A DNA stretch of 63,936 bases, the filler included, from Kipferlia bialata (taxonomy: Eukaryota): assembly GCA_003568945.1 (NCBI GenBank). It is 5 parts of 5 records of this genome, joined end to end, with 100 filler letters (N's around TTAATTAATTAA, not from the genome) between each part and the next. Parts side by side here need not be neighbours in the genome. Positions count along the whole stretch, not along the records: positions 1 to 24,539 come from BDIP01000222.1; positions 24,640 to 41,140 come from BDIP01000223.1; positions 41,241 to 48,163 come from BDIP01000232.1; 2 more parts are not named here. One strand, 5' to 3'. Made by a program: the position numbers and the translations under genes. Positions within the stretch are counted from its first letter, which is position 1. Every line of letters starts with the position of its first letter. Positions 19,809 through 48,207 of the stretch are shown here, in pieces. Below the pieces are notes generated by a model that worked only from the letters and a program-made list of their open reading frames with translations, was not told the origin of the DNA and ran no database searches.

Positions 19809-22792
19809 CGGTCTCTTTGGCCCTGTGTGTCAGATACTGCTGAGTGTCAACCCTCAGATGTTTGTGGAGTGGTTCAGCCTGCACCCATTGCTCTGGATTG
19901 CAGTGAGGTGTATTGACCTTGTGTACCTCCATTTCTCTTCATCCCCACTCTTACTTCTAGTCAAGTGTGTATATATTGTTTGTGTCACCCTCACCTTTCC
20001 TGCTTTCTCTGTCTCTCCTCTGTCTCTCTGTCTCTCTCTCTCTCTGTCTTTCTCTCTCTATACCTATTTGCACCATCTCACTCCCAGCGTGGCTGTCTCC
20101 GTGGGCACCCTCACCTACTTCATAGTACTAGTGACAGTGGCAGAGTGGGCCACAAAGGCAACGTACGTATATACACACATAGTATTCTGCTACATATATA
20201 GATAGAGATTAAGGGGGAGAGAGAGAGAATAATGTCAGTCCTGGTCACAGTGGCAGAGTGGGCCACAAAGGCAACGTACGTATACACACATAGTATTCTG
20301 CTACATATATAGATAGAGATTAAGGGAGAGAGAGAGAGAGAAATGACAGTCCTGGTCACAGTGGCAGAGTGGGCCACAAAGGCAACGTGAGTATAGCATG
20401 TTTATATTGTGTATAGTTATAGATAGAGAGAGAGAGAGAAGTGGGCTACCAAGGCAACGTGAGTGTAGTGTATTCATATATATTGAGAGAGTGAGTGTGT
20501 GAGAGAGACTCTGTCTGTGTGTTTGTATGTACTCAGTGCACCTGACCCAGCTACCATGCTGTCTCCTGTCGCTATAGGATACAAGTGACTATTTCTATCA
20601 GTCTGAATATTTACTCATAATATATATGTACCAACTTCTCACCCCAGTTACCAGGCTGTATCGTGTAGGTTCAGATACCCCCAGAGGTTCCTGCTCTATG
20701 CTGGGGTGTACATATTCGTGGAGGTGCTCTATGGGTTCACAATGATGGGTGCGTGTTAGTAGTGTTAACTATACTATTATATATATGGGTGTGTTTACAT
20801 GGAATAGTAATAGTATCGTAAGTATTAATACATATCGTGTGTTCTGACCCCCAGGCACCAACTGCCAGACCGACTCTGACCACCTGTACATATGCCCTGT
20901 CCTAGTTCTAAACGGGTCCGGATTCAGGTATGGGGTATATTACATATATGTAAGGTATAGCATCCTGTTCCATCGTATGTATTATATATTTCCTTCGGAG
21001 TTCCTCTCACAACTTACATGCGTGCTTAGGAATGCGTCTCTCTCTCTCTCTCTCTCTTCCTCCCTCTACCCCCTAGGCGTGATGACCTGGATCAGATGGG
21101 TCTGCGACCATTCCTCAGGGAGGCCACATGCGATGGTATGGGTTGGGCCAATTAATATATATATATGTGTATATAACCAGGATATTTGTATGCATTGGCC
21201 ATTCCTCAGAGAAGCCACGTGTGATGGTATGTATTGTTCTGAAATAGATGCTAACACATCAAGTTCTTCCTCTGCGTATCTCTCCTCTCTTCGCTCCTCT
21301 CATCCCTCAGCCACCCACTGTGCCGAGATATCCCCAGTAGTGCGGTCAGACCTCAAGGTATTGCTATATGTCTGTACATACCTCTATATCTCTCTCTCCT
21401 TTTGTCTCTATATTGTTCCATACCTATGCATTTGTCCTTAGTACGGTCAGACCTCAAGGTAAGGACACACACACACATATATGTATATATACATATATAT
21501 ATACATATATATATATACCTCAAGGTACACTATGTCTGTCTCCCTCTCTTCATATGTATCTCTGTACCCCTCTAGTACGCTCAGACCTCAAGGTGCTATA
21601 TATGACTCTCTCTCTCTCTCTCAGTCTGTCTCTGAGGTTCCTGTATATATATATTCATCTCCACAGCCTCTAACCCCCAGGCCTTCTTCCTGATCCAGTT
21701 CCTTCTCTCTCTCTCTCTCTCTGTCTCTCTGTATCTCTCTCTCCGTCTCTGTCTCTCTCTCTAACCCCCAGGCCTTCTTCCTCATCCAGTTCATAGTGCA
21801 GCCCCTGAACTACCTCATCTACATGCGCTTCATCAGGTATATGTCTCTCTCTCTCTTCATCAGGTGCATGTGTCTATCTCTCTCTCTCTCCCATGTAGTG
21901 TGTGCGACGTGTAGGTACATACTCACCTTAGACTCTGAGCTCATAAACAACCAATGATGTTATGTGTATCCGTTTCTCTTGTATATCTGCTACATACACC
22001 TAACATCAGATACTACCCCGAGCTCATCAAGAACCTGCGGCGCCCTCTCTTTGACAAGAAGGACAAGAAGAAGGATGTGGACGAGAACTCTCCCCTAGGT
22101 AACCATATCATATAGATATATTCCCTGATGCCTCTTTGTCTCTATAATAGTCCTCTTTGTGTCAAGAAGGACAAGAAGAAAGATGTGGACGAGAACTCAC
22201 CTTTAGGTAGGGTGTATAACCTCAGCACGCTGAGTATTCTTACCCATATAACCAGTATACCAATACACCTCTTTGTCTATGTACCTATATAAAGTGTGTC
22301 TCCCTCCTCACCCCCAGTCGTTGTGGCCCCCAAGCAGGCAGAGTATACTCATCCTTGTCCATATATACAATACTGCTATATACCTGTATATCTCTCTCTC
22401 CATCCTCACCTCAGTCGTTGTGGCCCCCAAGCAGGCCGAGTTCGCAGGGCTGGTGGCAGTCAACTTCTGGTGGGTGTTATGGCATCTCTCTCTCTCTCTT
22501 TACCTGATTCCATATAAGTATAATGTAAGTATAGTGTTCACATTGATTGCATTTATGTATATATACCCCAGTTCGCAGGGCTGGTGGCAGTCAACTTCTG
22601 GTGGGTGACGTGTACTCTCTCCCCCTCTCTATATATAAGTTATGTATTGTGTATACTATTTATATTCCCTGACCCCAGGTACTTCTTCCTGTCCAGCGTG
22701 GCCTACCTATGGTGCAACACACTCAATGTGAGTATAGTATAGTATAGTATAGTAATTCTATATTCTAGTATTGTATACATGAGTCATGATGT

Positions 22793-22824
<32 letters not shown>

Positions 22825-23496
22825 TACACCCTTTAACCACAGTTCACTGTCATTGATGACCCTGATGAGTCTGTCATGATGTTCTGTGTCATTGTGATGG
22901 TCACATACCACGTCACACTGCTGGATAACCTGATAGGGATAGAAGGTGAGGAAATATATACACCCACCTTAGTGTATATATATGATTGTCACATATACTA
23001 GTCTGTATCAATGTATTAAGTCAATGCATATAGTCTCCCTCTCCCCCCAGGTGGCACCATGGATGCCCTGAGGGCTAGTAGGGGATATGAATTATATACT
23101 ACTATATATATGATTGTCACATATACTCTTGAGTCTCTCCTCTTATACAAGGTGGCACCATGGATGCCCTGAGGGCTAGTGGGGGATATGTGTTATGTAC
23201 TATATATATATATATATATTTATATATACATATGATATGTGATTGTTCCCTATACTCTATATCCTCCTTCTCACACCAGGTGGTACCATGGATGCCCTGA
23301 GTGCCAGGCCCTCCAACCAGATACTGTCAGACGACATCCCATATAGGTATGTGGATACGTATATATGTATTGACAGATACTGTCAGACGACATACCGTAC
23401 AGGTGGGGGATGGGTATTCGTCTACGCATCCACATGTGTGTATTAATTTCAATTTGGACTAACCCCTAGGTGGAAGGACACCTCTGCCAAGCACTG

Positions 23497-23531
<35 letters not shown>

Positions 23532-24494
23532 ATATATATATATGGCCTCACTCCCAGGTGGAAGGACACCTCAGCCAAGCATGAGCTATTGAGGGTACCC
23601 ATTGAGATGGCACTGCTGCTCACAGGGCCCGTGGTGTTCTTTGGTACCTGTACTCTCTCTTTCTCTCTCTTACAGCTATTCGACTCCACATACATATGGA
23701 TTTCCCTTCCAATACCTATTATTACTGACCCCAGTATGCAACCTAGACTCGATCTCTGCTGAGGACGTGTGTCCATCCCTGGCCCTACTGGTGGCAGAGC
23801 AGTTCTCTATACTGGGGTGAGAGCATATGTGTAGAGATATCATTAATGGGAGTGTACAGTGACACTCTTTGGACCCCATGTCTCTCTCAGTCTATTTCCC
23901 CTCAACCTAACCTATCATGGACTGGACTGTTTCTCTCTCCCCCCCCCCCCACCCTCTCTCTTCTCATCCCAGTCCATCTCTTAGTCTCGAGCGCCTTATG
24001 CTTCTCTCTCTCCCTCCCCCTCCCCCCGTCTTACTCTAGCATGTCCTTTGACCTCGAGTGCCTCATGCTCCTGGGTGCCCTGTGTCTAGTACTGTTTACA
24101 GTGTTCATACTGCTCATGAGGGGACATGTCGCTGTTACCACAATCAAGAAGAGGTTCAGGTATATATAAAGCTTATGTATAGTGTAGAGTAGACCATATA
24201 TATACTCCTCCTGAGGGAACACGTGGCTGTCACAACAATCAAAAAGAGGTTCAGGTGAGTGTATGTGGTGTCCCTCTAGTATCTATCTTCATACCAATAT
24301 TTATGTATACATGTCTCCATACATTGATATGTATTATGTATACAGGTCTCTCTAACTATCTTACCAGTTACCAGTGGTGATACCCCCATGACCCTCTAGT
24401 ATATATACCTCTATATATATTTGCACATAGCTCTCTTGCTCTCTCTCTATACCTGTCTCTCTCCCCCTCACCCCCAGTGGCGACACCCCCATGA

Positions 24495-24500
<6 letters not shown>
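19809..24500 (+). CDS. Multi-exon multipass membrane protein, partial at both ends
   Basis: Exons with hydrophobic helices (VAVSVGTLTYFIVLVTVAEW; FLLYAGVYIFVEVLYGFTMM; AFFLIQFIVQPLNYLIYMRF; LMLLGALCLVLFTVFILLM); the junctions checked are in phase. Confidence 0.7.
20131..20462 (+). repeat. Tandem exon-end/donor repeats (4 copies, period ~112 nt for the first three)
   Basis: GTGGCAGAGTGGGCCACAAAGGCAAC|GT ending at 20162, 20275, 20386, with a shorter variant ending at 20458. Confidence 0.95.
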
Positions 24501-24538
<38 letters not shown>

Positions 24539-24583
24539 TNNNNNNNNNNNNNNNNNNNNNNNNNNNNNNNNNNNNNNNNNNNN

Positions 24584-24595: not shown

Positions 24596-24647
24596 NNNNN
24601 NNNNNNNNNNNNNNNNNNNNNNNNNNNNNNNNNNNNNNNTATAAAAA

Positions 24648-24687
<40 letters not shown>

Positions 24688-24731
24688 AGAGGTAGAAAGA
24701 AAGAGAGAGAGGGGAAGAGAGAGAGTGCTAC

Positions 24732-25324
24732 CTGCCATCTTGGCACCAAAGACACCAGTCTGTACGGCCTCCCCGTTGTACTCCTCCCTGAATGCAGTGA
24801 CACACCTGTCGAAGAAGGGCTCAGCCTAGAGGATAAGGAGTTAGAGAGAGAGAGAGAGAAGGGGGGGGGGGGGGGGGGGTAGCAAGAGTGAGAGACCCAT
24901 ACCTCCTTGGGGTTGAGTGCATTGTGGAAGTCGGGTCTGTTCCCCTTGAGCTGTCCGTACAGAGTGAACTGGGGCACCAGCAGCACACCATACCCGGCAT
25001 CCTTGACACTCTTCTTCCAGGGCCTGTATCAGTATCAGTATCTGTATCAGAATATATATATGTATCGGTATATACCTGCCCTGCTCGTCTGGGAACAGCT
25101 TCACATTCAGCACCTTCCTCACGATGTAGGTCATGTCGGCACGCATGTCATCCCAGTTGATGCCAAGGAGCACCATGTATCCCTAGGGTGAGAGAGAGAG
25201 AGAGAGATGGGGTATAGATGCACTACCCTGTACCCACCTGCTCAATGGCCCCAGAGACATATGGAGTCTCTACGTCCTCAATCGTCACAGAGGCCTCCCT
25301 GACACGCTGGATAATGACCTTCAT
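24732..25324 (-). CDS. DTD1: D-aminoacyl-tRNA deacylase, last exon missing
   Basis: MKVIIQRVREASVT…GYMVLLGI…KVLNVKLFPDEQGRPWKKSVKD…LLVPQFTLYG…KGNRPDFHNA…VQTGVFGAKM. Confidence 0.93.
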
Positions 25325-25470
25325 AGATGGTACGTGACTATGAAATAGTGTTCAGAGAGTATACTTATGGAAAAGACCTCTGGGGCCTACACCCTCAGTG
25401 TGCCAAGACAAAAAGAGCTGAATTGATTTCCGCCCATGCCACTCAGTTACATTATACTCTCTACCCACAG

Positions 25471-26404
25471 ATGTTCAGCGGTAGTGGAGGTGTTGCACAC
25501 ATAGAGACAGCCAGGCCAGACCTGCCCAATGCAGGCGTGGCCCAGGCCCTGATTCCCCCATTCAACCAGGTATATAGTGCGTTGAGTGTAGGATTATTAT
25601 TAATACTATATTGCCTTCTATTCACTGATTGATATGCTGTGTGGTGCTCTGATTCCACACTTCATGCATGCATATCTGCTATTTGGATGAGTATAGTACT
25701 TCAGCACATATATGCTGCATGGCATGTGCATGAGAGGTCCCTAGTCTGGGAGTGTATACACTATGGTAGGTACCCCCCCCCCCCCACTTTCTTCACTCAC
25801 TCCAGTTCCTTCGTGTCCCCTACAAGGTCCTGGCCATTGAGACCCCCTCCGAGTTCACCTATGCCTCTGGGTCTGGGTCCACAGTGCGTGCATGGAACTG
25901 GCGCAATGGAAAGAGCAGACGCGCCTTCAAGGGACACACTGGTACGATGCTATGGGAGAGGCACTCTGTACTATATTATATCTATACTCGGAAAAGGATG
26001 TTGGTTTCAATATGACTTTGATTTGCCCAGTAGTGTGGCAGAAGGAATTGATTCTGTTACCGGTACCGGTACCGGTACCAAATCCGCTTCACTCTCCTTG
26101 TCTTTTTCATTTCTTCTCCTCTTACCCCAGGACCCGTGACCAGCATTGCCCTGGACTACCCTGCTGGCCTCCTCTACACAGGTAGGAGTGGAGTGTATGT
26201 GTATATATATATGAGAGTATATAGATACTGATACCCCCGCCCTGGACTACCCTGCTGGCCTCCTATACCCTGGTATACGCCCCCTCTATAGTGTACCTTC
26301 TATTGTTGTCAGTATATAGATTACTGATACCAGGCAGCTGGGACCAGCGCATTGGTCACTGATATACCCTCTCAGTATCCATAGTGTCACCATACCTTAT
26401 ATTA

Positions 26405-26440
<36 letters not shown>

Positions 26441-28349
26441 CTGATCCTTAGGCAGCTGGGACCAGCGCATTGGGGTGTGGGACCTCAAGACTGGGGACAA
26501 TGTCAAGTACGTGGCAGAGCACCTCGACTTTGTAAAGGTAGGGCTGGACTCTCTTTCTCTCTCTCTCTGTCCGACTAGCATGGAAGAGAGCATTATGTTT
26601 TCGTCTATCGAGTATAACCCTCTCTATATAGTTGTATTCTTTTATGGACTGCCCCTTGCTCTCATTCCCCCAACCATTTCCCCTCTACCCCCCTGGCATG
26701 TTTCTCTCTTTTCCCGTTTCCCTCTCTTTTCCTCTGTCTCTCTTTCCCACTTACCCTCTCCCTCTCACCCCAGGCCCTTGCTGTGTTCCCTGAGCACAAG
26801 CGCCTGGTGTCTGGAGATGCCAAGGGAGTCATGAAGGTATCATCTGTTGTATTGTAAATATTCCTTATATTGTGTCACATGCACTCTGGTGATGCCAAGG
26901 GAGTGATGAAGGTACTATCATTATTACAGTAGTTGATAATGTGTATATATCTTTATACTACTTGTTGCGTTATATACCCTCTGGTGATGCCAAGGGAGTC
27001 ATGAAGGTACTGCTATTCTCATGTATTTTGTGTATATACTACAGTTGTATTAATGGTGTGAGTCAGTCTCATAAGTGTGTATGGTAAAGAATATCCCCTC
27101 ACTGCTAGGTGTGGGACACTGAGACCATGACTGGTGCAGACCATCAATATATTTGTGTATATCAGTGTTATTATTGTATTTAGTATAGGCTATCCCCTCA
27201 TATATAGGTGTGGGACACTGAGACCATGACTGTGGTGCAGACCATCTACCACCACAGCAGGAGTGTGGACTCTATCATCAGACTGGGGTCATCCGACCTG
27301 TTCTGCTCGGCATCCAGTGACAGGTATATATATACACACATATATATATGTATTTGCACTGATGTGTAGATGAGTAGTGACACTGACACCAGGGCTGTGT
27401 GTGTGTGGAGGCTGGGTGCCGAGGCCCCCGAGGTCTCCCTCCCTGTCTCTGACGACATTGCTAAGAACATGGCAGGTGGGACACATACATTTATAGTACA
27501 CTCTTGCACTAACTCTATACATTTCACGCTTCATCTGTACTTACCCTTCAGGCCACCTTACGGGTGTCCTCGACCTTGTCTATGACGAGGGGACTGGTCT
27601 CCTCTACACTGCATGTGCAGACAGGTTCGTCCGTTGCTGGCGGCTCCCCCAGACGAGTGATGGCCAGGCTGTCATGCAGTGGGTGTCACCACACACACTC
27701 AACACTGGGGTGACAGCTCAGGTAGGCGGACGCTGATACATATGATATACCTATGTTTGTTTATGTATATACTGACGTAACCAGGTTGGCACCAAGTATG
27801 AGGAGGCTGATACCTGTACTGATACGTGCACTGATACCTATGCATATATATATATACTTGTATATGTATATATACTGACATAACCAGGTTGGCACCAAGT
27901 ATGAGGAGGCAGCCCACGACCGCATCCTCCCTGTCCTCTCTGACTGGCCCCTCTCCATCGCTCTCTCTGCCGACAGGGCCCACATGGTGTGTGGCCTGAG
28001 GGACGGGCGTGTGACAGTGCTCGACAACAGTGACGGGTCTGTGGTGGGCAGTGTGAAGCCCCACAAGGACGGCATTGCATCCATAGAGTGTGTGTCCATG
28101 CTGGACTCCGGTGACAAGGACGTGCCCCAGTCGGAGCAGACACCAGTCGAGTGTGTAGTGACCGGCTCCTGGGACTTCTCTCTCAGGAGGCGGAGGCTGG
28201 GTGACCTCCTGGCTGAGATTAAGGGTGTAGACAGGGAGGAGGGGGAGGGAGAGGGCGAGGACTCCTTCGAGGACACGGATGATATGCTGGATGACCCCGA
28301 GGTGGCCGAGATGCAGAGGGAGAGGCTCAGGGCCATGCTCGGAATGTAG
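25471..28349 (+). CDS. WD40-repeat protein
   Basis: Spliced repeats: AFKGHT|GPVTSIALD…LLYT|GSWDQRIGVWDL; RLVSGDAKGVMK|VWD; FCSASSDR|AVCVW; VVTGSWDFSLRR; acidic C-terminal tail. Start codon tentative. Confidence 0.88.
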
Positions 28350-28583
28350 ACGGTGTAGATACTACAATGTAACACTACCAAACCCAAATAGAACATGATT
28401 ATTATACGGTGACGCGTACATGAGTCGTTGAAATCACCATTGAGCAGAGCCTGGGAGATCAATGTGACATTGATCAGTGTTGAAGGGTTCGACGTTTTTG
28501 CTTGATTCTGACTGGTAAGAACAGGCATTTTGTAGTCTCTCTCCACCTGACGGAAATCATCTCTCTCCACCTGACGCTGTGCC

Positions 28584-30739
28584 ATGTCCCAGGGAGAGAG
28601 TGCCAGTGAGGAGTCGTCCTCCTTCGATGACGAGGACTTCTCGGACATGCCGGGTCTGGAGCAGGTGGACGTGCAGGCACAGAGGCAGGAGATGGCGGCA
28701 GGTATTCATATGATGCATACCCGTATTACTATATATATATATATATATATATATATGTTCAAGCACAGAGGCAGGAGATGGCAGCAGGTAGGCTTGTATA
28801 CCCCACTATGTAGTCATACTCTTATTTCTTTTGTGTATACATAGGTACAGGCACAGAGGCAGGAGATGGCGGCAGGTACACTGTGTATGTAATGTATATA
28901 GGTATATCCAGGCTTGTATATACAGGGGGGTGCAGGCACAGAGGCAGGAGATGGCAGCAGGTAGAGTGCACTATATCCATGTGTGGTAGAGTATACCCAG
29001 TATATATATATAGCGGCGTGCAGGGCAGAGGCAGGAGATGGCAGCAGGTACCCGGCATACTAACATACACACATATGATGCACTCTAAATGCATGGTTTA
29101 GCATGATCTTACCCCCAGAGCTAGCCATTGACTTCCGTGACCTCCCCATGGGCACCCTGGAGGATGGTGCTGAGCCTGACTATGCCCATGCCGCTGAGCT
29201 CAAGAGTAGGGCACTGGAGGAGGCCAGGGAGGGACACCTTAGGTATGAGCAGTGTATATATACTATCATATAGTGTACTCTCTATCAAGAGTAGGGCACT
29301 GGAGGAGGCCAGGGAGGGACATCTGAAGTATATCGTAGTATATACTATATAGTACACACTCTCTCTATCAAGAGTAGGGCACTGGAGGAGGCCAGGGAGG
29401 GGCACCTCAGGTAGGGCGGTGTAATGGTATCATATATATTCTCTCTATCAAGAGTAGGGCACCTCAGGTAGGGCGGTGTAATGGTTTCATATGTATTCTC
29501 TCCGCATCACTGGTGTCTCACCTACCGGTATCTATTCACCTCAGGAAGGCCGTCCTCCTTGCCTCCGATTATCTAGTATAGTATATTACAGTAGTATATT
29601 CTACATTCATAATCAATTCACCTTAGGAAGGCTGTCCTCCTTGCCTCCGATGCAGTCCAGGCCCACCCTGGGAGTGGGCTGATGCTGGTGTGCAGGGCAC
29701 GCATCCTCATCGACCTGGGGGAGATATCAGCCGCAAAGAGGGACCTCAAGGTATCCCAGACACACACTCTCTCTCTCTCCCCCTCCCTCTACACAATCCT
29801 TTACTTATCTCTCTCACTCCAGCTGGCTGTTAAGCGCTCTCCCAACAGTGCCAGTGCATACCACTGCCTAGGTACATCAGTGCTAGTATATATATATATA
29901 TATATATATGAACTGCCATAGGTTCACTGATGAATAATGTATCAATACGCCGATACTTACAGTGTCTGTCTAACTCTTCAGGTGACGCCTGCAGTCTGTA
30001 TATGTGACAATGTTATTATATATGAGAAATTGTGCTCTCTATTGTATTCGATCCATCTACTTATGGTAGTACTTATCCCTAAGGCGACGCCTGCCGTCTG
30101 CTGTGTGACAGTGAGGCAGCAGTATCATAGTATATAGTGCATATTTGATTATTGATGGTACATTGATATACACCATATCTTTCTCTCATCTTCAGGCGAT
30201 GCCTGCCGTCTGCTGTGTGACAGTGAGGGTGCTGTCAAGGCATACCGCACTGGGCTTGACCTGGAGTACAGGGCAGAGAGTGCTAGACACCTCACGGTCA
30301 TGGAGAAGGATGTTAAGGTATAGGGATATACCACCCATAGCATATGTATATATATATACCACTATGATAGTATCTGTTTATATATATATATATATATATA
30401 TCACTGTGGTAGTATCTGACTGTCATGGAGAAGGACGTCAAGGTATAGGGATATACCTCCCATAGCATATGTATATATATATACAGCTATGCATATTTAT
30501 GTATAGCTGTTGTTTTCCCTGTAATGGTACTGATGTCCTGGGCTAGGAGCAGGCCAGTCAGTATTCTCTCTCTCTCTCTATATATCATTATACACTGATG
30601 CCCTAGGAGCAGGCCAGACGGGACAGGGCAGTCAGTGTCATATATTGTACACACTACTATTTGCATACTTCTATATATATATATATCAGTTGATACTGAT
30701 GCTTTAGGAGCAGACAAGACGGGACAGGGCAGTCAGTAT

Positions 30740-30778
<39 letters not shown>

Positions 30779-30941
30779 CAGTTGACCCTTATCCCTAGGA
30801 GCAGGCCAGACGTGACAGGGCAGTCCGGGAGAAGGTCAAGGTCGACATCAAGCCTGGGAAGCCGTCATCTGCCATACCTGGGGTGCACCCAGCCGCACAG
30901 GGGTTCAAGCCTCCTGCTGGCATGGCCAACCGTACGTTAGA

Positions 30942-30983
<42 letters not shown>

Positions 30984-31286
30984 TTCCCTCTATATATATG
31001 CTATCTTACCCCAGCCTTTGAGGTGCTTGCTGACGAGGCTGCCAACCTCTCGCCCCAGATGGCTGAGAGGCTCATGGGGGACAACAAGGTGGCATCCCTC
31101 TTCAACGACCCAGACTTTGCGGCAAAGGTATGTTCATAGTATTCATTACCCGGCTTAAGGTGTGATATCTACCCCCAGCTTGCCGAGGCCTCCAATGGTC
31201 CAGAGGGTGCTGCCAAGTTTGCCAATGACCCCGAGTTTTTGAAGAACATTGCGGCATTCATGGGTGTCATGGGGCAAAAGAAGTGA
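28584..31286 (+). CDS. Hsc70-interacting protein (HIP/ST13)-like TPR plus STI1/DP co-chaperone
   Basis: TPR helices (KAVLLASDAVQAHPGSGLMLVCRARILIDLG…RSPNSASAYHCLGDACRLL) and C-terminal DP motifs (LFNDPDFAAK…KFANDPEF); stop 31284-31286. Confidence 0.78.
28671..29050 (+). repeat. Five regularly spaced exon-end/donor repeats with dissimilar spacers
   Basis: CAGAGGCAGGAGATGGC(A/G)GCAG|GTA with GT at 28702, 28788, 28876, 28961, 29048. Confidence 0.95.
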
Positions 31287-31287
31287 G

Positions 31288-31335
<48 letters not shown>

Positions 31336-31682
31336 ACGCGCGAGGCATTCGTGGGACGCTTTGAGCTGCCGCGACCAACCTGTATCCTTAATAGTGTAGT
31401 GTTTACGAGCGGACGCGATGGCCGGGAGTATCATTCATTCCCTCCACTTGGCACTGAGGTGATATTATCAGCAGATATGTGTGTAAGGCCGAAGACGCCA
31501 GGGGCCGGGATTCATGGAATTGAAGGATGGATGCACAACTCTCTAGTACTACGAAGCAGTCTCTGGAATAGACAACGACGCGACCACCTTCACCGAATGA
31601 ATATCAATAATCTATTGTTACCACCACTCGTCTCGTATAAATGCTATCTCTCCTATCTCCGTGTATCACTGGTAGTCTGTAT

Positions 31683-32967: not shown

Positions 32968-33022
<55 letters not shown>

Positions 33023-36000: not shown

Positions 36001-36348
36001 GTGAGTGCAGGTACCTGAGAGGTGAGTGGGAGTATAGGGCAGAGAGAAAGAGGGGCATTAGGCCGGAGACAAGACATATAGTATGTGGAGTCGTGAAAGA
36101 GAGTACACGAAGACGTGGGAAAGATGTCAAGTGGGAAAGGGGAAGGGGAGATCAGGCTATCTGACGTACATGAATCCCTTGGTGGACCCCCCAAAGTCAG
36201 AGAGGGATACTCTCTCTCTCTCTATATATATATATCAAATAGGTTGTAAATAAATATATATATATATATATGTATTCACTCTCTGACGTACATGAATCCC
36301 CTTGTGGACCCCCCAAAGTCAGAGAGGGAGAGGGTGCGGGGCATGGTC
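32660..36348 (-). CDS. Multi-exon hypothetical protein (beta-propeller/Kelch-like C-terminal part), 5' end in gap
   Basis: Exons such as GVWEFDTK|TEQWTRLPEAPP, LGIGCIDAET|ERFLHLAD…ALCES|PDAHDGKDWCDMTLD…GMGVA*. Confidence 0.6.
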
Positions 36349-36657
36349 TGAAGATCAGGTGTAACAATATATGAAATATATATATGTAATAATATGTAAT
36401 GACAGCTGTAATAGAGAGTGGGGGGGGGGGGGGGGATGCCATATATATATATATATATTTACTNNNNNNNNNNNNNNNNNNNNNNNNNNNNNNNNNNNNN
36501 NNNNNNNNNNNNNNNNNNNNNNNNNNNNNNNNNNNNNNNNNNNNNNNNNNNNNNNNNNNNNNNNNNNNNNNNNNNNNNNNNNNNNNNNNNNNAGGTGGGG
36601 GGCGGGGGGGGGGGGGGGGGGGGGGGGGGGGGTGAGAGAGAGACTCAGGGCTGGTAC

Positions 36658-36871
36658 CTCCCAGTGGTCTTGTCCTTCACCCTGTTGACTGTGCCGAATG
36701 ACCCACGGCCAATCTCACCTGGGGTCAGAGATATGCATATATGGGTATACAAACAATCAAATAGAGGCCAATCTCGCTTGGGGTTAGAGATGCATAGGGG
36801 GAAGCAGATGAGGGAGAGAGTGTGTTACAGGTCCAATCGACAGATCCTGCCTCACTATCCTGTACATCCAT
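36658..36871 (-). CDS. Protein kinase, first two exons only
   Basis: MDVQDSEAGSVDWT|CEIGRGSFGTVNRVKDKTTGR (GxGxFG loop); followed by poly-G and N gap. Confidence 0.7.
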
Positions 36872-37384
36872 ACAAGTACAATAAGACAATCACCAAAACA
36901 GCATACTCCAAAGTACATCACAGAGTACATCAATCACGGGTTAGAGACAGTATTGAAATGGGCGGACCACTATGAGAGAAGAGCGGAATATGCGGCATAC
37001 CTAATGTGCGGTACACACCAAGTTATACCTCTAACCATACAACCTAGAGCAACAACACGTAATAAAGTGCAGAAATAACGGCCGATGATGCATGAACACC
37101 ACGATAACAATTCTCTCAATCCACTCAGTGATACAAATATCAGGGCCAAAAGTGCACTCCTCCGACTGAAATCTTACCTAGCTTCTGGTACTTGTCCATA
37201 TATGTCTGTCTTTGCTTCGCTGTGGGTCAGTGTGGGATTTGCTGTGAGCACGGGCTGGGTGTGTTCACTGGAGAGCAAGATTCCGCAAGACTCTGAATAT
37301 CAAAAACATCAAAGGGTGTAGCACGAAGTGTCGTTCTTCTCAGAACGGGTCTCTTCACACTATCCCTGTTTCTACACTCCCACC

Positions 37385-40300
37385 ATGGCCAACATCCCCA
37401 ACCCCCGTCGCATACCCTGGAATGACCCGTATAGAGATGTCATCGACCAGGTGGGTGAGAGGGAGTAGTGGCATCTATATATAGTATGAATTAGAACTCA
37501 CTTTGACATGTGACTCACTGTTGTATATGGTTGTCCCAACCAGTGAGGTATTGCCTTCATGTGTGTCGATATGTAGAGTGTGGGGTGAAAGATATATTAA
37601 TGTGGAGCAATCTAGTACAGATAGGCCTGTTTGGTAACTGTACTCCATTCCAGTGCACATTGTGACATATACCCACCATGTACACATATGTTGATATACA
37701 CCCCCTCACCCTCAGGAGGCCATCTGGATCACTCTGAACTCCACCATCCAGATCATGGGGCTGATTGACACTGGGATGGATGTGGACAATAGCGTAGACT
37801 GGTGGGTCAAGTCTTCACTCTCTTTCTCTCTCTCTCGCTCTCTCTATTACCCCTTAGTCCAGTCTGCAGACAGCCGTAGATGTGGTTCTGAGTCGCTATC
37901 CTGTTCTCTCCCTTGAGGTTGTACCCAACGACATTGGCACATATTCATATAGACCGAGAAAGGAGCCACTCAAGTTAGGTGAGTGGGTTCTCTCTCTCTC
38001 TCTCTCCCTCTCTGTCTCTTTCTATTGCGGACGTAGCAAATAGCCACAAAGGACTGGTGGATACTCCCTCAAGTGTTTTCAGTCGCCATAAGACTACTAC
38101 ACTGTGTTCACCTTCTCTCTTCCTTTCTCTCTCTCTCTCACCCCTCAGACCTTGTCCATGACTACTACACCTCCCCCCCTGTGTCCACCATGTCTGAGTA
38201 TGACTCTGTCCTGGCATACCCTGTCCCTGGGTACCAGGCACCCAAGGACGGGGTGTCAAGGTGGGGGCTAGTAGTATAGTACACTATTTGTATGTGATAA
38301 TAATTGTGTGGGATAGGGATGGTATCCCATATACAACATCGTGAGTGTCTAGACCAATACCCACTCTCAGACTGTTCCATGTCAAGTTGGTTCGGTTCGA
38401 GGTGCCTGATGATCCTGACCCCGACTTCCTCACTGCCATAGATGGACACACACACGCACTGGTGGTGTCACTGCACCACATACTGGGTGGGGGCTATGTA
38501 CATATGTATATATTCTAGTGAACTCCCACTCTATATATGTATGCTCACTAGACAGGTGACGGCAACAGCACAGTGATATGCTGGGTACAGATATATACTA
38601 GCAGACTCCCACTATATGTATGTGTGTGTATTTACACTCACTTGACAGGTGATGGCAACAGCACAGTGATGCTCCTCAAGATGCTGGCTGAGCTCTGGAT
38701 CAGTGAAGGCCTGGATGCATGCCGCAAACCAAGGTGACCACTCTCTCTCTCATCGGATCCCATGCCAGTTCTCTCTCACAATATAGATAGTGTAATATAC
38801 TATACATTGTGTATATGATGTCCTCACTCTAGGCAGGCCGGCACTGTGTGGAGCAACATGTACTGCCCAGGTGGTGTGCCTACCATAACACTACCCACAG
38901 AGGGCTCCCTTGCAGCGACACTCAGGTATAGATTGCACATATCACACAGTGATTAACACGTTCCACTACCTCACTCAAACCCCACCACATTTCTCACCGT
39001 AGTGGTACAAAACTGGACTCCAACCCAATTGAGGAGGTATGGGCGATCTTTATTGGGAGTTGATAGATACCTTGGCAGTGATTCTATCGCTGTTACCCAC
39101 GCACGTCCCCACTGCAACAAGATACTGAGTGTTGCGGATAGACAACCGAATCTGAGATTCATGACAACTCTCTTATATCAGCGCACCCCCTCCTGCGTGA
39201 CTGCTGCTGTGCCTGTGTCACACCTCAGCCAGGCCAGGGTGTATGACTACCCCCTCACAGGTACGTGGTATAACCACTCTCGTACAGATACATGTACATA
39301 CTTGTGTGCACCCAGGGTGTAATCTGTATGTGTGTAAACTTTACCCCATAGACACCCTTGGAGGAGTCTTGCTGGCCGTGACTGGTGCCCAAATCCTGAA
39401 TGAGAGGAAGAGGGATGGAGATGAGACAACTGACATGACACTCAGGTTGGGTCTCATACCTACAATAATGTCTTTCTCTTCCTCTGACCCTTCTAGGATG
39501 TGGCTCCCCAGTGACGTCCAGCCCATACTCAGGGCACAGAGACCTGACTTACCTGACATAGGGGGGCTGGTGTCCAATGCAGCCAGTGGGGGGAGGGGGC
39601 AGGTGCGGGGTTCAGACACTACATCACTATGTATCGGATGTATACACAGTGTGTGCTGTGTCTCACTCATTCTATCCCTGCCACTCGAGCATACTATATG
39701 TGAATGAATAGTATATTGCATTGTGCGACAGGCTCCTTCCGTGCCACCCCAAGCACATACATATACAACATAGTGGTATGCTCTTTATACTTAGAGATAT
39801 GCGCCATAGTCTTACTCCAGATCCATGCCACCCCCACCACCACAGTAGAGGCTGTGTGCCAGGCAGTCAATGCAGGGAGGGAGAGGGAGAAGGTACACTC
39901 ATTGATACATACCTGGTCTATCATACTGATGCAAAAGCCATCCCTTGTCTCCCGCCATTTACCACCTCCACATCCAAGGGTGACATGGCACCATACACAC
40001 AAACTGTATTCAAAAGATATTACATATTCTGTGTATGTGTGCTATACATATGCTTTGCATACACCTCCCCCCAGGCCACCTCCACCCCCACCTTCTGGGC
40101 TGTGACCAAGGCACTGCTGAGCAAGGGGGTCCAGACATCTGTCAGGTATGGTATTCCTGCGATATTCATGTACTCTCATGTATTCATAAATGTATGTATG
40201 CCCTGACCCCAGCCCTGATATCAACTCCCAGACCTGTGTCTTCAGCAACCTGGGAAGGGTGGACCTGCCCTACCCACTCGCAGAGGTGGGGTGCATATAT

Positions 40301-40897
40301 ATATATGAATGAAGATAGTAGTAGAGTAGTACAATTGTGCCTGTGTTTGCAGCGTGTCAGTGAGTCATACGCTAACCACCCTTGGTTTAACCGAGAGGGA
40401 TGTTAACCCCCAGATCACAGGCTGTGTCTTCTCCAGGGGTGTTGGCAAGTATGTAGTGGGGGCCATGAACACGAGGTGATATATTCAGAGTTTTTGGATA
40501 TACACATATGCTTCTGTTTCACTCCCATCTCACGGCAGGGGTAGCAGCACTGTAAGCCTCACCTTCTCCTACTCCCAGCCCTTCTTCTCCAGGGACATGG
40601 GTGCGTGTTGGTTATCTTACGTGTATGCTTCCAGTATAGTGTCTATGTGGTGGGTAGACTCTCTGTCCCAGTTGTCTTAATGTGGTTTCTTACCTTCAGC
40701 CATTGCCCACAGGGATGCCTTCCTAAAGACTCTGCCGTGGGTCAGAGACAACCCGAAGGTAGCATATTCGATACACATGATATGGGCGATACCATATACC
40801 ATAGATCATACACTCTTCTGTTGAGACACATAGGTGAAGCATTTACTAACTCCAGGCCACTCTGCAAGACCTTGCTCTGTTCCTTGAGACTCTGTGA
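37385..40897 (+). CDS. Stand-alone CoA-dependent acyltransferase of the condensation-domain/PapA5/alcohol acetyltransferase fold
   Basis: Spliced motif ALVVSLHHIL|GDGNS (HHxxxDG); N-terminal LQTAVDVVLSRYPVLS; C-terminal FSNLGRVD; terminal exon ATLQDLALFLETL*. Confidence 0.78.
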
Positions 40898-41184
40898 TGA
40901 TGTTAGGATGATGGGAGGTTGAAGACAGTTGTGTGGGTGTATGAGTATATGTGAATATGGAATTGACCACCCGGACAAGAGGTGGCACGTGTAGAATGAG
41001 AATTTTGCGGGAATAGTAGAATATGTGAGTATGAAACAAGTATTGGGATTGTTGTCGCTATGGTAGAGTCACTATCAGTGACTTATTTTCATTCTCAGTT
41101 TTTTATTACGAGGGGGCGGCCGCCTTGGCTATTTGAAAATNNNNNNNNNNNNNNNNNNNNNNNNNNNNNNNNNNNNNNNNNNNN

Positions 41185-41251: not shown

Positions 41252-41284
<33 letters not shown>

Positions 41285-41495
41285 ACTGAGGATGTGGATT
41301 CAGTAAATTCACTCCAGTGTGAGAGAGAGTGCGTGTGTATAGACAATCACTGGGAGATAGCTAGGCAGTATATATAGTATGTACATAATATACACATACA
41401 TACTCACATGATTGAGTTCCTCAGCTTCATCATCTCATGTAGTATCCCACATACCATATGCATACATATACATATATATATACTGGTATACTCAC

Positions 41496-42462
41496 ATGAT
41501 TGAGTTCCTCAGCTTCATCATCTCGTGGGGGGTCAGGGCACCCCGGGTGTACTTGGAGGGGTGCCTACAGTGAGATAGGTATCTATATATATATATATAG
41601 GTATATATATAGGGAGGGAGAAAATGGGTGAGAGAGAGAGAATGGGGAGACCCCGGGTGTACTTGGAGGGATGCCAAAAGTAAGACAAATGTGTTACTAT
41701 ATATATAAGGGGGAGAGACAGAGATATAATGGAGGGTCAGAACACTAACAATATATATATATGTCTGGTGATGTACCTTGGCAGCCACAGCAGAATGTCC
41801 CATAGATATACAAGTATATGTTCAACATATGTAAATATAACCACATAGACTATTAGAGAGACATTCATATTCATCATACCTTGGCAGCCACAGCAGTATG
41901 TCTCCTGGTATATATACACATACATATGAAGCATATCAATACATATACATGTATATACATACGATAGAGGTGTATAGATATTCATACCTTGGCAGCCACA
42001 GCAGCATGTCGCTTGTTATACCAAATACAAAAGGTACTATATAAGGTACTCTATAGACATACTATAATAATATATCGACATATACATATATATACATATA
42101 TGTATGTACCTTGGCAGCCACAGCAGCATGTCTCCTCTGCGCCGCACATTGGTCTGGGGGTGAGAAGATGACAGAATATATAGTGTATATAGTATATATA
42201 TATATATAAGATAACACAGTATATAGAGTATACATAGTGTCTCCTCTGCGCCTCACATTGGTCTGGGGGTGAGATACTCATGGGAAGATAACGGTGAGAT
42301 AGTATGAAATAATGGGAATAGATGGGAAGCCGGTGCAGGGGGAGGGGAGGGAGGGTAATACAAAACTCATATACACACATATATTCCCACCTGGTGGAAT
42401 GTCCTGATGGATGGGAATGCCGTCCTCAGCTCATTCACAACCTGCTTGTAGTCCTTGCCGTT
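41496..42462 (-). CDS. Internal exons of a hypothetical protein, possibly Myb/SANT-like
   Basis: NGKDYKQVVNELRTAFPSIRTFHQ|TNVRRRGDMLLWLPR|HPSKYTRGALTPHEMMKLRNSI; only loose resemblance to a Myb repeat start. Confidence 0.45.
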
Positions 42463-42705
42463 CTAGAGTTAGATATATGTATACATATATATACACATAT
42501 ACTATACTATACTGAGAGGGAGAGAGAGACAGGGAGAGAGAGACCACCTGCGTTTAGTCCTTGCCATTCTAGAGTTAGAGAGAGATAGTAAGAGTCATAT
42601 CTACCTAGATAGATATAGATAGATATACAGAGAGAGAGAGAGACAGAGAGAGGATAGTGAGAGGGAGAGAGCTGTAACTGAGGGGGGGCCAACGGGTTGG
42701 GGAAA

Positions 42706-42744
<39 letters not shown>

Positions 42745-42812
42745 TCATGGACACTGGAACCTACTAATACATTTGTATATGTGCTAGTACACTGCATGGA
42801 TAGTGTCCGTAC

Positions 42813-42974
42813 CAGTGTGCATCTTGAGTCAAGGCTGGTCCCCTCGGCATAGTAGGGGTCAATGTGGGCGTCGGTGATCTGCACAATGTACCCAGAGCCC
42901 CCTGACGTGGCCAGAGCCACCACGGCTGACGCCACAGCGGCCAGCACATACATGACCAGTGTGGGATGACCCAT
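42813..42974 (-). CDS. First exon of a secreted metallophosphoesterase (acid sphingomyelinase-like/endopolyphosphatase family)
   Basis: Signal-peptide-like N-terminus then YIVQITDAHIDPYY (DxHxD metal motif). Confidence 0.75.
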
Positions 42975-43382
42975 CTTTGAAGGTCTAACTGAAGAGAGAG
43001 AGAGGGCATGAGTCATGCCGCATGACATGGCACTGATTTCTGTTTTTGTTCTTAGAAATCTACACCCCTTTTCAACCGTTGATTAGACCTGTCATACGTC
43101 AAGCTTCTCTTTAAGCCTGTGTGTCTATGCGTCTGGAGGCTACCTTTGAGTGTGCGGGGCATATACTGAAGTCTGGGTGGGAGGGCTTCCTCACCTATGT
43201 GCTGACTGACATCCTCCACTTGCCAGCTGAGCACCCAAAGCAGGTGCCCTCACTCACTCTCTATCTCTCTATCTGTCTTTTGCATATATAAATGAAGTGG
43301 TTATCCTCCATATCTTAGCAGAGCGCACCAGTATGGTTCTCCCCCTCTCCCCACTCCCACCCCTCTCTCTCTCTCTCTTTCT

Positions 43383-46300
43383 ATGGTACACCTAGCCAGA
43401 GTGTTGTACAGTGTCCCGGGTGAAGACCCCCTCCCAACCACCCATTCCGTCTGTTCGAGTGTAATTATGTATAGTCTTCTCTTCTGATCACACTATGACC
43501 TGCGATACATAAAGCCCTTTTGTGGTCGTACCTCCCAGCGTATTGTGTCACTATACTCTCTCTCACTCCCTCTCTCTCTCTCTCATACCAGATCGACACT
43601 GTCAAGCGTCTTCTGGAGTACAACGTAGCTATATATGTATATATTGCATATAAGTATATAGACGTATACCTGTATGTTCTCTCTATTGCCAGGTCGACAC
43701 TGTCAAGCATCTTCTGGAGCTCTCTCTCTCTCTCTCTCTCTCCCTCCCCCTCTCTCTCTCTCTAACCTCTAGATTGACACTGTCAAGCACCTCCTCGAGT
43801 ACAACGTGCCAGGGGGCAAGGGGTTCAGGGCACTCCTCTCCATATACTCCTTCCTGTGCTATGTGGATGGGTGCGTAGTGTTCACTCTACATATCAATTC
43901 ATTGTACATTTGTATGTTTTATGTTCCCTTATACTCCTTCCTGTGCCATGTGGATGGGTAAGTCGGCCTATTACATACAATACTGTCTTAAAGCATGTAT
44001 ATTGTGTATTCATAGGTAGGTAATCTTGCTTTGCACATATATATTCTCTTATGATTGTGTCTTCCTCGTCGTTAATGTATTATTGTTATATTATTTGGTA
44101 ATTTGATATGCTCTGGAGGCACTCGTCGATATCTAGTCATATGGTCTCACCCCCTCTCACCCCCTAGCCTTGTGGAGGGTGGTCTCGAGGGGTTCTCCAG
44201 GCACTTCCCGGTGGACGAGGTACTACACTTATATGTATGTATATATATATATATAGATACACACCCATATATTCAATATATATATTATCTACTATGAGTG
44301 AGGACGAGGTAACACATGTTTGACTCTCAAGATTCCTATGCATATGTTTATTCTGGTCACTAGTCTCTGTTCTTCTTCTTCCCCCATGTCTCTTGAGAAA
44401 CACACACACATATATATTTATATATACCTTCACCCCAGACCATAGCCGACCTGTCCCGCCTTGGCTGGATGCACGAGACACTCCAGAGTGCATTCCTCGT
44501 GATAGACGATGTGCTCGACAATGCAGGTATATTATACTTTGATATTTATTATATATATATATTATTATATACTAGTATAGTATTATTATACTGTCAATAT
44601 ACGAATCTATATTGTTATTGAGAGAATGCCCTTGTATTTATTCATGTTCCCTTTATTAGCACTTTGTTAGTATAACAATTGAGAGACTATGCCCTTCTCA
44701 CTTCCAGGCACCCGTCGCAGCAAGCCCTCCTGGCATGTCATGAAGGTATTCTTACACCTGTCTCATTTCTTTGTTCCAGGGTCTCTCTCTATAATTCCAT
44801 TCTTTTGTGACATGTAGACTCAATCATCCCTCACCCCCAGGGCCCAGGCCGTGCTGGCTTCGATGGGTTCATCCTCAAGGGCGTTTCGTCCCAGGTACCT
44901 GGAGTATTTAATAGTATATCTCTTGTGTTGTTTTCTTTCACATATATATATATGCGTCTCCTTCCTCACCCCCAGGTTGCCTCTGACCTTGAGAGGAGGT
45001 GCAGTGCTACTGGACTCCTGCAGGTATGAGAGACCCATGCGAACGACAGGACATGTATAGTATACCCTCTTATGTATAGTATTTCGTATATTTAGACCTT
45101 GAGAGGAGGTGCAGCTGGACTGCTACAGATGAGGCAACACTATATATTATTGGTATATAGTTCTATGTAATTGATTACTCACCCCCAGGTCCTTGAGCAC
45201 GTGTGCATGCGTACATGCATGGGAGAGCTAGACGACACAGACCTCGCAGTCACAGGTATACATATGTATAATACTTGACGAAGTAAATAGTGATACCTCA
45301 TGTCATCAGGCTCCACCCTTGATGAGCTCCGCACTGCCTGCCCCCCCACCCTCATATATGTTATACTATACTATATGTGTTACTATATTCTAAATGTACC
45401 AATAACTGCATATTGTGTTAATTACTCACATACTACCCTTAGGTACTACCCTTGACGAGCTCCGCACTGCCTGCCCCCCCACCCTTGTTGACTCCATCCA
45501 CTACAACAAGACAGCCCTGTACACAGTGTGGTTCCCAATCCTCAGTGGTGTGCTTGTCGCACAGGTAGATATGCATATAAATGAACAGTGTCAACTCTCA
45601 TCATAGCGCTGTATATATGCTTTCTACTGACGTAGCGGTATCGTGAGACTTGCCCCACTAGTAGATATATCTCTCTTTCTCTCTCCTTGACATGCTGAGC
45701 TCTTTCCCCACCTCCCCCCCCCCCCCTCCACCTTCTCGCAATATATATGTATATATATATATCATAATGAACACTACTAACTACAGGGCATGCTGAGCTC
45801 TGTCCCCCACCTCACCCCCCGCACCCAGCACACCAAGTCTGTCTCCATGGACACATCCAGCCCTGTCGGTGGGGCACCTCTGCCTGAGAGGGTGCTCTGT
45901 GATGAGGAGACGACACCCAGGTAGGGTATATATCTACATATCATGATGTGTCAATGTGAATCATGTAGCATTCTATATTGATATTGTAAGATGAATATGA
46001 TGATTGCTAGACCCTAACCCCAGGCAGCTAGAGTCTCTCAACCTGTCCCAGGTCTGCATTGAGATTGGGCACTACTTCCAGATCCAGGATGACTATCTCG
46101 ATGTGTTTGGGGACAAGGTACGGCATATCTATCTGTATGTGGCATTAGATAGTTCCGTAGCTACACGTATATAACTGTATATGGTTGGTAACCCTCAGGC
46201 CGTGATGGGCAAGGACGGGTATGACATCAGCGTGTACACTGTGTCTATACAGTGTGTATATAACATATATATTAATTTGCATATATACTCTGTCTCTTAT

Positions 46301-47663
46301 GTACCAGGCCGTGATGGGCATGGACGGGTGTGACATCAGTATGTATATACATATATATATATGTATATACTATATATATACTATATATATATGTATGTAG
46401 TATCTATTCTAACCCTCAGGCCGTGATGGGCAAGGACGGGTGTGACATCAGAGAGGGCAAGGTGTCGTGGTGCCTGTCCACTATGCTGCATGGGTGCGAG
46501 GGGTACGAGGCCCAGGAGCTGACAGGTATAGTTGAATATATATATATATATATTTATATATATAGTATAGTATATATATATACATATATGCATAGTGGTG
46601 CCTGTCCACTATGCTGCACGGGTGCGAGGGGTACGAGGCCCAAGAACTGACAGGTATAGATGCATGTATATATGCATATAGTATATATATATACATATAT
46701 GCATAGTGGTGCCTGTCCACTATGCTGCATGGGTGCGAGGGGTACGAGGCCCAAGAACTGACAGGTATACAGACACATATTTTTACTATATAATGTATTT
46801 ATGCTGATCTCTCACCCCAGACGCCGAGGTGTCTCTCTTTGCCTCCACCTATGGCAGGGGGCCTCCCCCTATATTATGTATATATATATGTATTGTATTT
46901 CTATGTATATACCTCTCACCCCAGACACCGAGGTATCACTCTTTGCCTCCACCTATGGCAGGGGGTCCAGTCCAGCCAAGGAGGACGTGGACGCAGTGAG
47001 GAAGGTATGTTACTTGAATGTGCAAGAGAATAAGGTAGCATGTATATATGTATTGCAGGGGAAGGTCAAGGAGGACGTGGACGCAGTCAGAAAGGTATAT
47101 AAGTAGAATGTCATTTATACACTATACATGAGTATGTATTTGTTTTGCAGGGTCCGGCCAAGGAGGACGTGGACGCAGTGAGGAAGGTAAGAAATAGTGT
47201 ATCCACCTCTTGTCAGGTTATCAGGTTATGACTTAGGAGAATCTCTGAGTGTATGTGGACCATTAGTTTGTATATACCACTTTCCCCCCCTCTCTTATTG
47301 TATATATGTACACTGACTCTAGGTCATGACTGACAGAGGCATCCCAGAGGTCTATGCACAAGTGAGCAAGAGGTGAGACAACCGTATAGCTACATTGTCT
47401 TGTGATCAGTTACCCTTTATGTACAGTTTCATTTGCAGTCTGACTTATATAATACAAGGTACCAGCGTGACACATCCGCCGCTGTGCATGCCCTGTTCCC
47501 TGCCTTATATGTATACTGTATTTATATACTATATGTGCATACTGCCTATAAATTGACTTCTAGGTACCAGAAGGACATTGCAGCTGCTGTGCTTGCCCTC
47601 CATCCTGCCCTCCAGCCACCCCTGACACTCTTCCTCAGAAAGCTGGAGGGGAGGAAGATGTGA
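43383..47663 (+). CDS. FPPS-type trans-prenyl diphosphate synthase (start codon uncertain)
   Basis: LLEYNVPGGKGFR; FARM QSAFLVIDDVLDNA|GTRRSKPSW; YNKTALYT; SARM IGHYFQIQDDYLDVFGD; GKDGCDIREGKVSW; basic C-terminus EGRKM*. Confidence 0.92.
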
Positions 47664-48207
47664 TATACATCATTGTATTGTATACAAAGTGTCTCTTCAG
47701 CCCCTTCCCCTGACACTCTTCCTGAGGAAGCTGGAGGGGAGGAAGATGTAGATGTAGATGGTAGTAATAGACGTGAATGATAGATGAGTCAATGCAATGT
47801 TTTAGGGCTTTGTTGCAACCTCTGGAACTATTTATAAATAACAGAAGGAGAAAGGAGTTGCGACAGTCGCCCCTGCTACAGGCAGTAGAGTATTCCTCGG
47901 GGAGTAAAGGGGAATGTGTCAGAAGTACAATTGGGTATAGTATCAACGATGAATTGTCACTGTGACGAGATATTTAGTGGAACTGGCCCTCTATGAGCAC
48001 CATAGGACCCCAATGAAAGTCTGAACTATCTCCTTAAGGTTAGAAGGCAGAGAGGAACGAGACTGGCAGAGAGGGGAATGAATGAGTGAGTATACATATG
48101 GGGTATATGGGGAGTGAGAGAGGGGGGGGGGGGGGGGGGGGGGAGGGGGGGACAGCCCCCCGGNNNNNNNNNNNNNNNNNNNNNNNNNNNNNNNNNNNNN
48201 NNNNNNN

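Follow-up and report, generated by a model that had tools for sequence, protein, structure and literature searches.

Why should introns carry pieces of the very exons that they separate, and why should these pieces differ from the exons mostly at silent sites? The question is raised by a 63,936-nt stretch of DNA (the window) from Kipferlia bialata, assembly GCA_003568945.1, which consists of five scaffolds joined by N linkers and contains three further N gaps, giving 8 pieces. K. bialata is a free-living fornicate; passages of its genome paper describe a short-read assembly with 124,912 GT-AG introns and contain no mention of duplication or heterozygosity (PMC5874029). In seven hand-built gene models, 46 of the 128 exon edges bear 1–4 partial copies, 67 copies altogether, and 117 of the 190 differences between copies and exons are synonymous, with a pooled ratio of nonsynonymous to synonymous differences per site (pN/pS) of 0.21. 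The copies are genuine. They duplicate exon-intron boundaries partially and in tandem, as do the mirages known from amphioxus, and splicing removes them where this was checked. Comparison of the sequences suggests, with a probability that we put at roughly 0.45, that they are recently displaced working exon edges, each replaced by the edge of a divergent allele in a diverse, recombining population.

Copies of exon edges and their splice signals

The census covered this window and the gene models A, B, C, D, E, G and H, with 64 exons and 57 introns. The reading frame is open in all seven when the coordinate-built exons are translated; of these, A, B, C, E and G cover their genes in part, exons 1 and 2 of E are doubtful, and a comparison with a database protein and with a spliced contig was made for H alone. 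Exon 45445–45564 matched a single protein, P0001 (labelled at its source as polyprenyl synthetase, Kipferlia bialata), and the 15-exon model of gene H is identical to P0001 across 415 residues. The models and selected copies are as follows.

19809–24254, + strand: gene A, unnamed, membrane-protein-like; partial, 15 exons; 17 alignment matches, 15 edge-anchored
20237–20458, + strand: three copies of the end of gene A exon 2, from codon-blind alignment
20551–20574, + strand: deeply diverged acceptor copy of gene A exon 3, below DNA-level detection
24732–25324, − strand: gene B, D-Tyr-tRNA deacylase; partial; introns of 52–77 nt; zero copies, an internal control
25806–28349, + strand: gene C, WD40-like; partial, 8 exons; 6 copies; weak WD40-type Pfam matches below cut-off
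28584–31286, + strand: gene D, a model of 296 amino acids with a weak STI1/HOP DP match; 13 alignment matches, 12 edge-anchored
28757–29047, + strand: four copies of the end of gene D exon 1, with spacers unrelated to each other
32661–36347, − strand: gene E, unnamed; partial, 11 exons; 12 copies
38556–38663, + strand: acceptor copy at 38556 ahead of the matching acceptor at 38649, in an unmodelled gene of a copy-poor piece; outside the pooled counts
41408–42568, − strand: gene G, unnamed, three exons; partial; 7 copies
43127–47663, + strand: gene H, polyprenyl synthetase (PF00348), 15 exons, 415 amino acids; 15 copies
43592–43626 and 43696–43719 (acceptor) and 43927–43957 (donor), + strand: copies of gene H exon 2 edges, all absent from the spliced contig
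47707–47749, + strand: copy of the end of gene H's final exon, downstream of the stop codon, from alignment

Each exon was aligned locally with its flanks, codon-blind and at the DNA level, with a score threshold of at least 28. This yielded 70 matches, 67 anchored at the exon edge (39 of donor type and 28 of acceptor type) and 3 unanchored, which were discarded. The pass rate was 44/114 for adjacent exon-intron pairs, compared to 21/2988 for cross-gene pairs and 3/546 for non-adjacent pairs of the same gene. The copies group into 46 families, of which 30 have one member, 12 two, 3 three and 1 four; they measure 20–59 nt and are spaced 56–134 nt apart (median 101), close to the first-pass annotation of this DNA, which had described 1–4 partial copies of 20–60 nt at roughly 75–130 nt. 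Its figure of at least seven genes on three scaffolds likewise holds: copies are present in 6 of the 7 models on three scaffolds and, beyond the pooled counts, in the unmodelled gene at 38556 and in a case found by eye near 36779. All copies had been placed in introns, which is true of nearly all and not of 47707–47749, which lies outside any intron and itself ends in an in-register stop codon (TAG, compared to TGA in the live exon). Copies of this kind can mislead gene prediction in the K. bialata genome.

Four further copies lie below the threshold (at 21525, 21864, 30547 and 35378) and consist of 8 exon bases with GT or AG; matches of this form number 4 in 26,608 bases of own introns versus 6 in 1,392,686 bases elsewhere. 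A protein-level search of 1354 own-intron anchors yielded, beyond the DNA-level census, just a single new deep copy and a fragmentary match. Near the end of gene H, the final exon has an acceptor copy (47459–47504) that has diverged strongly, with 13 mismatches in 46 nt, including one Lys codon swapped for an Arg codon at all three positions.

The splice signals are repeated together with the exon edges, in agreement with the first-pass description: a GT stands after 36 of 38 donor copies, and an AG before 26 of 28 acceptor copies. The branch-point motif accompanies 18 of the 28 acceptor copies, compared to 53 of the 61 real acceptors of the whole window, where it sits 1–6 nt before the 3′ YAG, and to 21 of 534 other intronic AGs. 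Acceptor copies are weaker than real acceptors (p = 0.004); the scores of donor copies equal those of real donors, and 20 of 38 score at least as high as their own real donor. Donors in the window are mostly GTAT or GTAC, with little consensus further into the intron.

On the exon side, copies are about 0.9 identical to the live edge; from the fourth intron base, identity falls near the cross-gene level, as it does upstream of the AG in acceptor copies. Similarity above the 99th percentile of the null distribution was limited to 3 of 66 flanks, related spacers were found in 10 of 93 within-family pairs (6 of 45 families), and the similarity of flanks was uncorrelated with the divergence of the exon part (Spearman 0.00 and −0.15). 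The frame is broken by 9 of 10 gaps, and current coding use is therefore unlikely; one copy contains a stop. Given these identity, splice-signal and frame data, the copies resemble edges that were functional in the recent past, grew apart from the present-day edge while still translated and are now decaying.

A tandem arrangement of this kind could conceivably be the product of haplotype mis-assembly, one of four origins considered in the first-pass annotation: the scaffolds look short-read-derived, with gaps and long G runs, and allelic pieces set in tandem would give exactly such a synonymous bias. The window itself may derive from X1, a set of read-derived DNA contigs, and a match to X1 therefore tests the assembly and not the biology. 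X1 contains 0.97 of 489 words sampled from 43050–47800, where 31-mers crossing the far edges of the 15 copies make up 6.4% of words; were all 15 junctions artificial, about that proportion of words would be expected to be missing. One X1 contig bridges copy, spacer and copy at 43591–43711 (acceptor copies of gene H exon 2) with 0 other letters, and some copy junctions are themselves duplicated with small changes. The contig comparison takes in a minority of the copies; it covered one 1.8-kb stretch, with 18 and 17 of 30 bins covered in two runs. Uncovered parts carry no weight as evidence, and the depth on that stretch (472 vs. 384) is no measure of copy number. Mis-assembly is thus disfavoured by the X1 words and the bridging contig and appears very improbable as the general origin of the copies, though a few false junctions are possible.

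A second set of contigs, X2, was treated as spliced RNA solely because one contig joins exons over a GT-AG intron, and its RNA status is a guess. That contig joins 43153–43241, 43771–43869, 44167–44217 and 44437–44527 (exons 1–4 of gene H) with 0 other letters and leaves out three of the 67 copies, all near exon 2; one of these bears GTAAGT, the donor actually used being GTGCGT. The share of words found in X2 (0.21) is about that of exons plus 3′ flank (0.17–0.20) and is uninformative on the use of copies. At least in gene H, a short-intron spliceosome thus passes over decoys as strong as real sites.

Direct selection would act on the copies if they were translated in minor mRNAs, through alternative or non-canonical splicing. 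Their splice signals are intact, the copy at 20551–20574 keeps 6 of 8 residues although 5 of 8 third positions have changed (1, 1 and 5 differences at codon positions 1, 2 and 3), and contigs, which drop variants and rare or minor forms, would conceal minor isoforms. However, just 8 of the 67 copies have an in-register GT/AG route, the frame-breaking gaps and the stop are at odds with translation, and the spliced contig skips all three local copies. We consider this explanation quite unlikely. The first-pass statement that most copies have only one splice site was probed solely in the form of such a route, and to that extent holds with these 8 exceptions.

Synonymous bias and the models of cis duplication

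The 190 differences were found in 2241 aligned sites, with 31, 34 and 125 falling in codon positions 1, 2 and 3, respectively. The pooled pN/pS has a family bootstrap range of 0.135–0.317, varies between 0.19 and 0.27 across transition weights of 1–8, and is 0.21–0.31 when each variant is counted once (171 variants). For a neutral copy beside a constrained exon, the expectation is 0.5, which was rejected under every setting tried (p from 2 × 10−11 to 8 × 10−4). Thus, the first-pass claim that the differences are mostly synonymous, in excess of neutral decay, is borne out even when one neutral copy is set against one constrained copy. The excess is also present in transitions alone and in transversions alone; fixed windows of 15 and 21 nt beside the splice site gave a pN/pS of 0.14 and 0.19, and the nearest copy of each family taken singly gave 0.18. 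Amino acid changes in the copies showed no excess of conservative replacements over random (p = 0.22), and pN is 0.064 in the farthest copies compared to 0.033 in the nearest.

The position of the differences within codons bears on a proposal, also made in the first-pass annotation, that long introns use the copies for nested or recursive splicing. The median unit of 101 nt is close to the size of a plain intron, and introns with several copies reach 300–545 nt. Nested splicing, however, predicts no codon-position bias and leaves the observed one unexplained; donor and acceptor copies are unpaired within introns (e.g., 4 and 0, 3 and 0, 0 and 2), and several copied exon ends lack a terminal AG. 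As the origin of the copies it is highly unlikely, whereas it could be a way in which some decoys are tolerated.

From the splice site outwards, pN rises from 0.017 (0–9 nt) to 0.107 (>40 nt), a climb part of which may reflect alignment overrun at the far edge, and pS remains steady at 0.12–0.25. This is the pattern predicted if ordinary cis duplicates frequently collapse, or are converted, into the live exon within one lineage and so come under indirect purifying selection, as the first-pass annotation had also suggested. A few recent cis duplicates do exist (111-nt units, 94–98% alike), and passages on amphioxus report that mirage copy number differs between haplotypes (PMC3087553). We ran small simulations (N = 100, 1–5 seeds, parameters of our own choosing) in which a single-lineage model with unequal sister exchange or conversion gave a pN/pS of 0.82–0.93 in 8 of 8 settings, and four clonal populations, untrimmed and limited to crossover and conversion, gave 0.61–1.26. 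Later simulations added census-like edge trimming, copy loss and the birth of new edges; in these, four clonal settings gave 0.52–0.64, compared to the observed 0.21. Clonal rates high enough for indirect selection cut pS to 0.05–0.07 and the spacer difference to 0.06–0.10. The observed ratio was thus unreached in these toy models by exchange within a clonal lineage alone, and we regard this origin as improbable.

Neutral cis duplicates could also show the bias if synonymous sites at live exon ends turned over about 4 times faster than the copies, through exon-specific mutation or codon shifts. Divergent alleles would then be unnecessary, and 13 of the 15 columns in which all copies agree against the exon are indeed synonymous. 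However, the silent changes show no strong direction (53 GC-to-AT vs. 38 AT-to-GC), the introns adjoining the copies look fast-evolving rather than slow, and unrelated flanks with good splice signals are left unexplained. We give this possibility correspondingly little credence.

Proposed displacement of exon edges by divergent alleles

Of the four origins put forward in the first-pass annotation, the deposition of pieces of divergent alleles gives the best fit. In the form that we favour, a break 20–60 nt inside an exon end would prime synthesis on a divergent homologue, which would continue for about 70 nt into the homologue's intron and then rejoin out of register; some 100 nt of the same edge from the divergent allele would thereby be inserted, by repair or by unequal exchange, and the old edge displaced. 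Only events spanning the splice site would survive. The old edge would become a copy, decay neutrally and soon be deleted or multiplied by unequal exchange. Silent differences would be mostly allelic, because they would have arisen while both versions were translated. One-sided invasion of the divergent homologue followed by out-of-register joining is a plausible route. In the trimmed simulations with outcrossing, where another haplotype serves as template for the new edge, 7 settings gave a pN/pS of 0.07–0.34, a pS of 0.14–0.25, GT retention of 0.89–0.97 and a diversity of 0.11–0.23; pS, pN and GT retention were near the observed values.

Several observations weigh against allelic displacement. 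Allele-templated birth is built into these outcrossing simulations, and outcrossing with crossover and conversion only, untrimmed, gave 0.40–0.82 in 6 settings. The simulated spacer difference was 0.16–0.30, compared to about 0.6–0.7 observed, so that the unrelated spacers are unexplained unless repeat-rich spacers mutate several times faster. Members of a family often share their far edge to the base despite unrelated spacers, and a second process is therefore needed. Of the 45 differences confined to a single copy, 22 are synonymous, a share that exceeds pure neutrality (0.26) and not the 0.41 of the neutral-versus-constrained model, and that is not decisive. Displacement by alleles would require a synonymous diversity of about 0.1–0.2 together with exchange between haplotypes, and such a diversity is extreme. 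On the 1.8-kb stretch, no second allele was seen in either run of contigs, which drop variants. Neither proteins, where the best other match has 26–36% identity, nor metagenome contigs yielded a close relative of P0001; the search for other isolates or relatives gave only distant prenyl synthases (7 proteins and 2 metagenome loci). Sex is little documented in the group to which K. bialata belongs, and the literature covered on the species yielded no demonstration of it.

Some features of fornicate repair are in keeping with exchange between unlike homologues. Fornicates are described as lacking non-homologous end joining (NHEJ) and Rad51A and as having two Dmc1 paralogues, in the passages that treat them (PMC8516963); Dmc1 is characterized as mismatch-tolerant in parts of two further papers (PMC7809202, PMC11514202), and in the hypervariable fungus Schizophyllum commune crossovers are reported to favour exons (PMC4209137, in part). 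It is possible, although doubtful, that Dmc1-only, NHEJ-less repair routinely overwrites exon ends in certain domains from highly divergent homologues, outpacing the decay of displaced edges, so that the introns of one genome would record the edges of other alleles; mirages would in that case let a single genome report on cryptic recombination and hyperdiversity in a free-living fornicate, and perhaps also in mirage-bearing outcrossing marine animals. If the allele-templated origin is correct, a single genome would reveal past recombination and very high diversity, and the same codon-position test applied to animal mirages could settle their origin. The synonymous bias itself makes cryptic recombination testable in a free-living fornicate.

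Known systems and distribution along the window

Mutually exclusive exons arise by tandem exon duplication and comprise exon-like copies with a low dN/dS (ratio of nonsynonymous to synonymous substitution rates). The K. bialata copies are likewise tandem, exon-like and low in this respect (pN/pS 0.21), but they are partial, few have an in-register route (8/67) and most of their gaps break the frame (9/10). Silent partial cassettes donate sequence to an expressed gene in Neisseria pilS and Borrelia vls. Those cassettes resemble the copies as partial, untranslated sequences that stay true to the protein, whereas the copies are linked to splice sites within housekeeping-type genes and measure 20–59 nt; nothing seen in the window pointed to programmed variation. 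Internal gene duplication under the Rogers model of intron gain, exemplified by the potato RdRp gene in the passages of PMC4974935, also involves short boundary-crossing duplications within a gene. In K. bialata, however, no new intron is evident: the extra edges lie inside existing introns and are skipped where checked, and the copies consist of a boundary with its intron side, not of an AG-GT exon segment that makes an intron. The exon-biased recombination between divergent haplotypes described for S. commune represents the population regime that allelic displacement needs, but the relevant passages concern allelic crossovers and not boundary duplications (PMC4209137).

The closest likeness is to the amphioxus mirages, in which a 5′ or 3′ intron-exon boundary is repeated in tandem in units of 10–160 bp, according to passages of two papers (PMC3087553, PMC3902484), which name Adh3, the globins BflGb6 and BflGb9, troponin C and PGBD5 among the genes affected. 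The label 'undescribed' in the first-pass annotation accordingly has to be dropped. In amphioxus, where mirages were described as minisatellites that are tolerated, many of them have AG/GT, splicing is normal and the origin is unclear (PMC3087553). The K. bialata copies span boundaries at both 5′ and 3′ exon edges (39 + 28), their units of 56–134 nt fall within the amphioxus range and AG/GT is kept; normal splicing is represented by one spliced contig, in which minor forms would be hidden, skipping 3 of 67 copies. They differ in that the host is a unicellular fornicate with 46 of 128 edges affected, that the units do not form homogeneous minisatellites, their spacers being mostly unrelated (10/93 pairs related), whereas BflGb6 units are reported as 81–100% alike and in concerted evolution, and that the pooled differences show a synonymous bias, whereas the amphioxus passages give no codon-position bias. 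In structure, the copies are thus mirages of a variant type, set apart by the unicellular host, the mostly unrelated spacers and the synonymous bias of the pooled differences. In the literature covered, which left older key papers and supplements out of scope, we found no prior report for K. bialata or of a pooled synonymous bias in such repeats; the supplementary alignments of PMC3087553, outside that literature, may bear on this point. Mirages are dense here in a unicellular eukaryote distant from amphioxus, and their pN/pS of about 0.2 is unmatched by neutral cis duplication.

A model-free repeat scan of the window, counted as repeat-bearing bins per kb in the 8 pieces, showed an uneven distribution. 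Three pieces are rich in copies (4.3, 3.4 and 3.9 bins/kb, with a microsatellite content of 7–12%), one is intermediate (0.66 bins/kb) and four are nearly free of them (0–0.11 bins/kb, 0.4–1.7% microsatellite, about 100 acceptor motifs). 'Pervasive', the term used in the first-pass annotation, is therefore an overstatement. Because copy-free and copy-rich pieces alternate within the same scaffolds, the distribution suggests local hot domains of 5–15 kb, provided that the scaffolding is correct. Thus, 1–18776 is copy-free and 19700–24539 copy-rich on one scaffold, across an N gap, and a switch from copy-rich (24640–36463) to copy-poor (36593–41140) occurs across an N gap within another. The alternation tracks shifts in microsatellite content and intron length.

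Four other features of the window were recorded. A multi-exon gene of great length occupies the minus strand of 1–13560; its introns are short, it has zero copies, and an exon that was tested gave no Pfam match. On a copy-free scaffold, 56505–58568 (− strand) is an open frame of 687 codons, without a Pfam match. The first exon at 42706–42974 (− strand) encodes a hydrophobic N-terminus and a motif that we take to resemble metallophosphoesterase; it runs into a 38-base G run and is not continued in frame by the exons beyond. Runs of G as long as this may be signs of mis-joining or of sequence collapse. Finally, the exon at 36650–36780 (− strand), which encodes a kinase-like glycine-rich loop, is preceded at a distance of about 60 nt by a short acceptor copy, which stands outside the counts.

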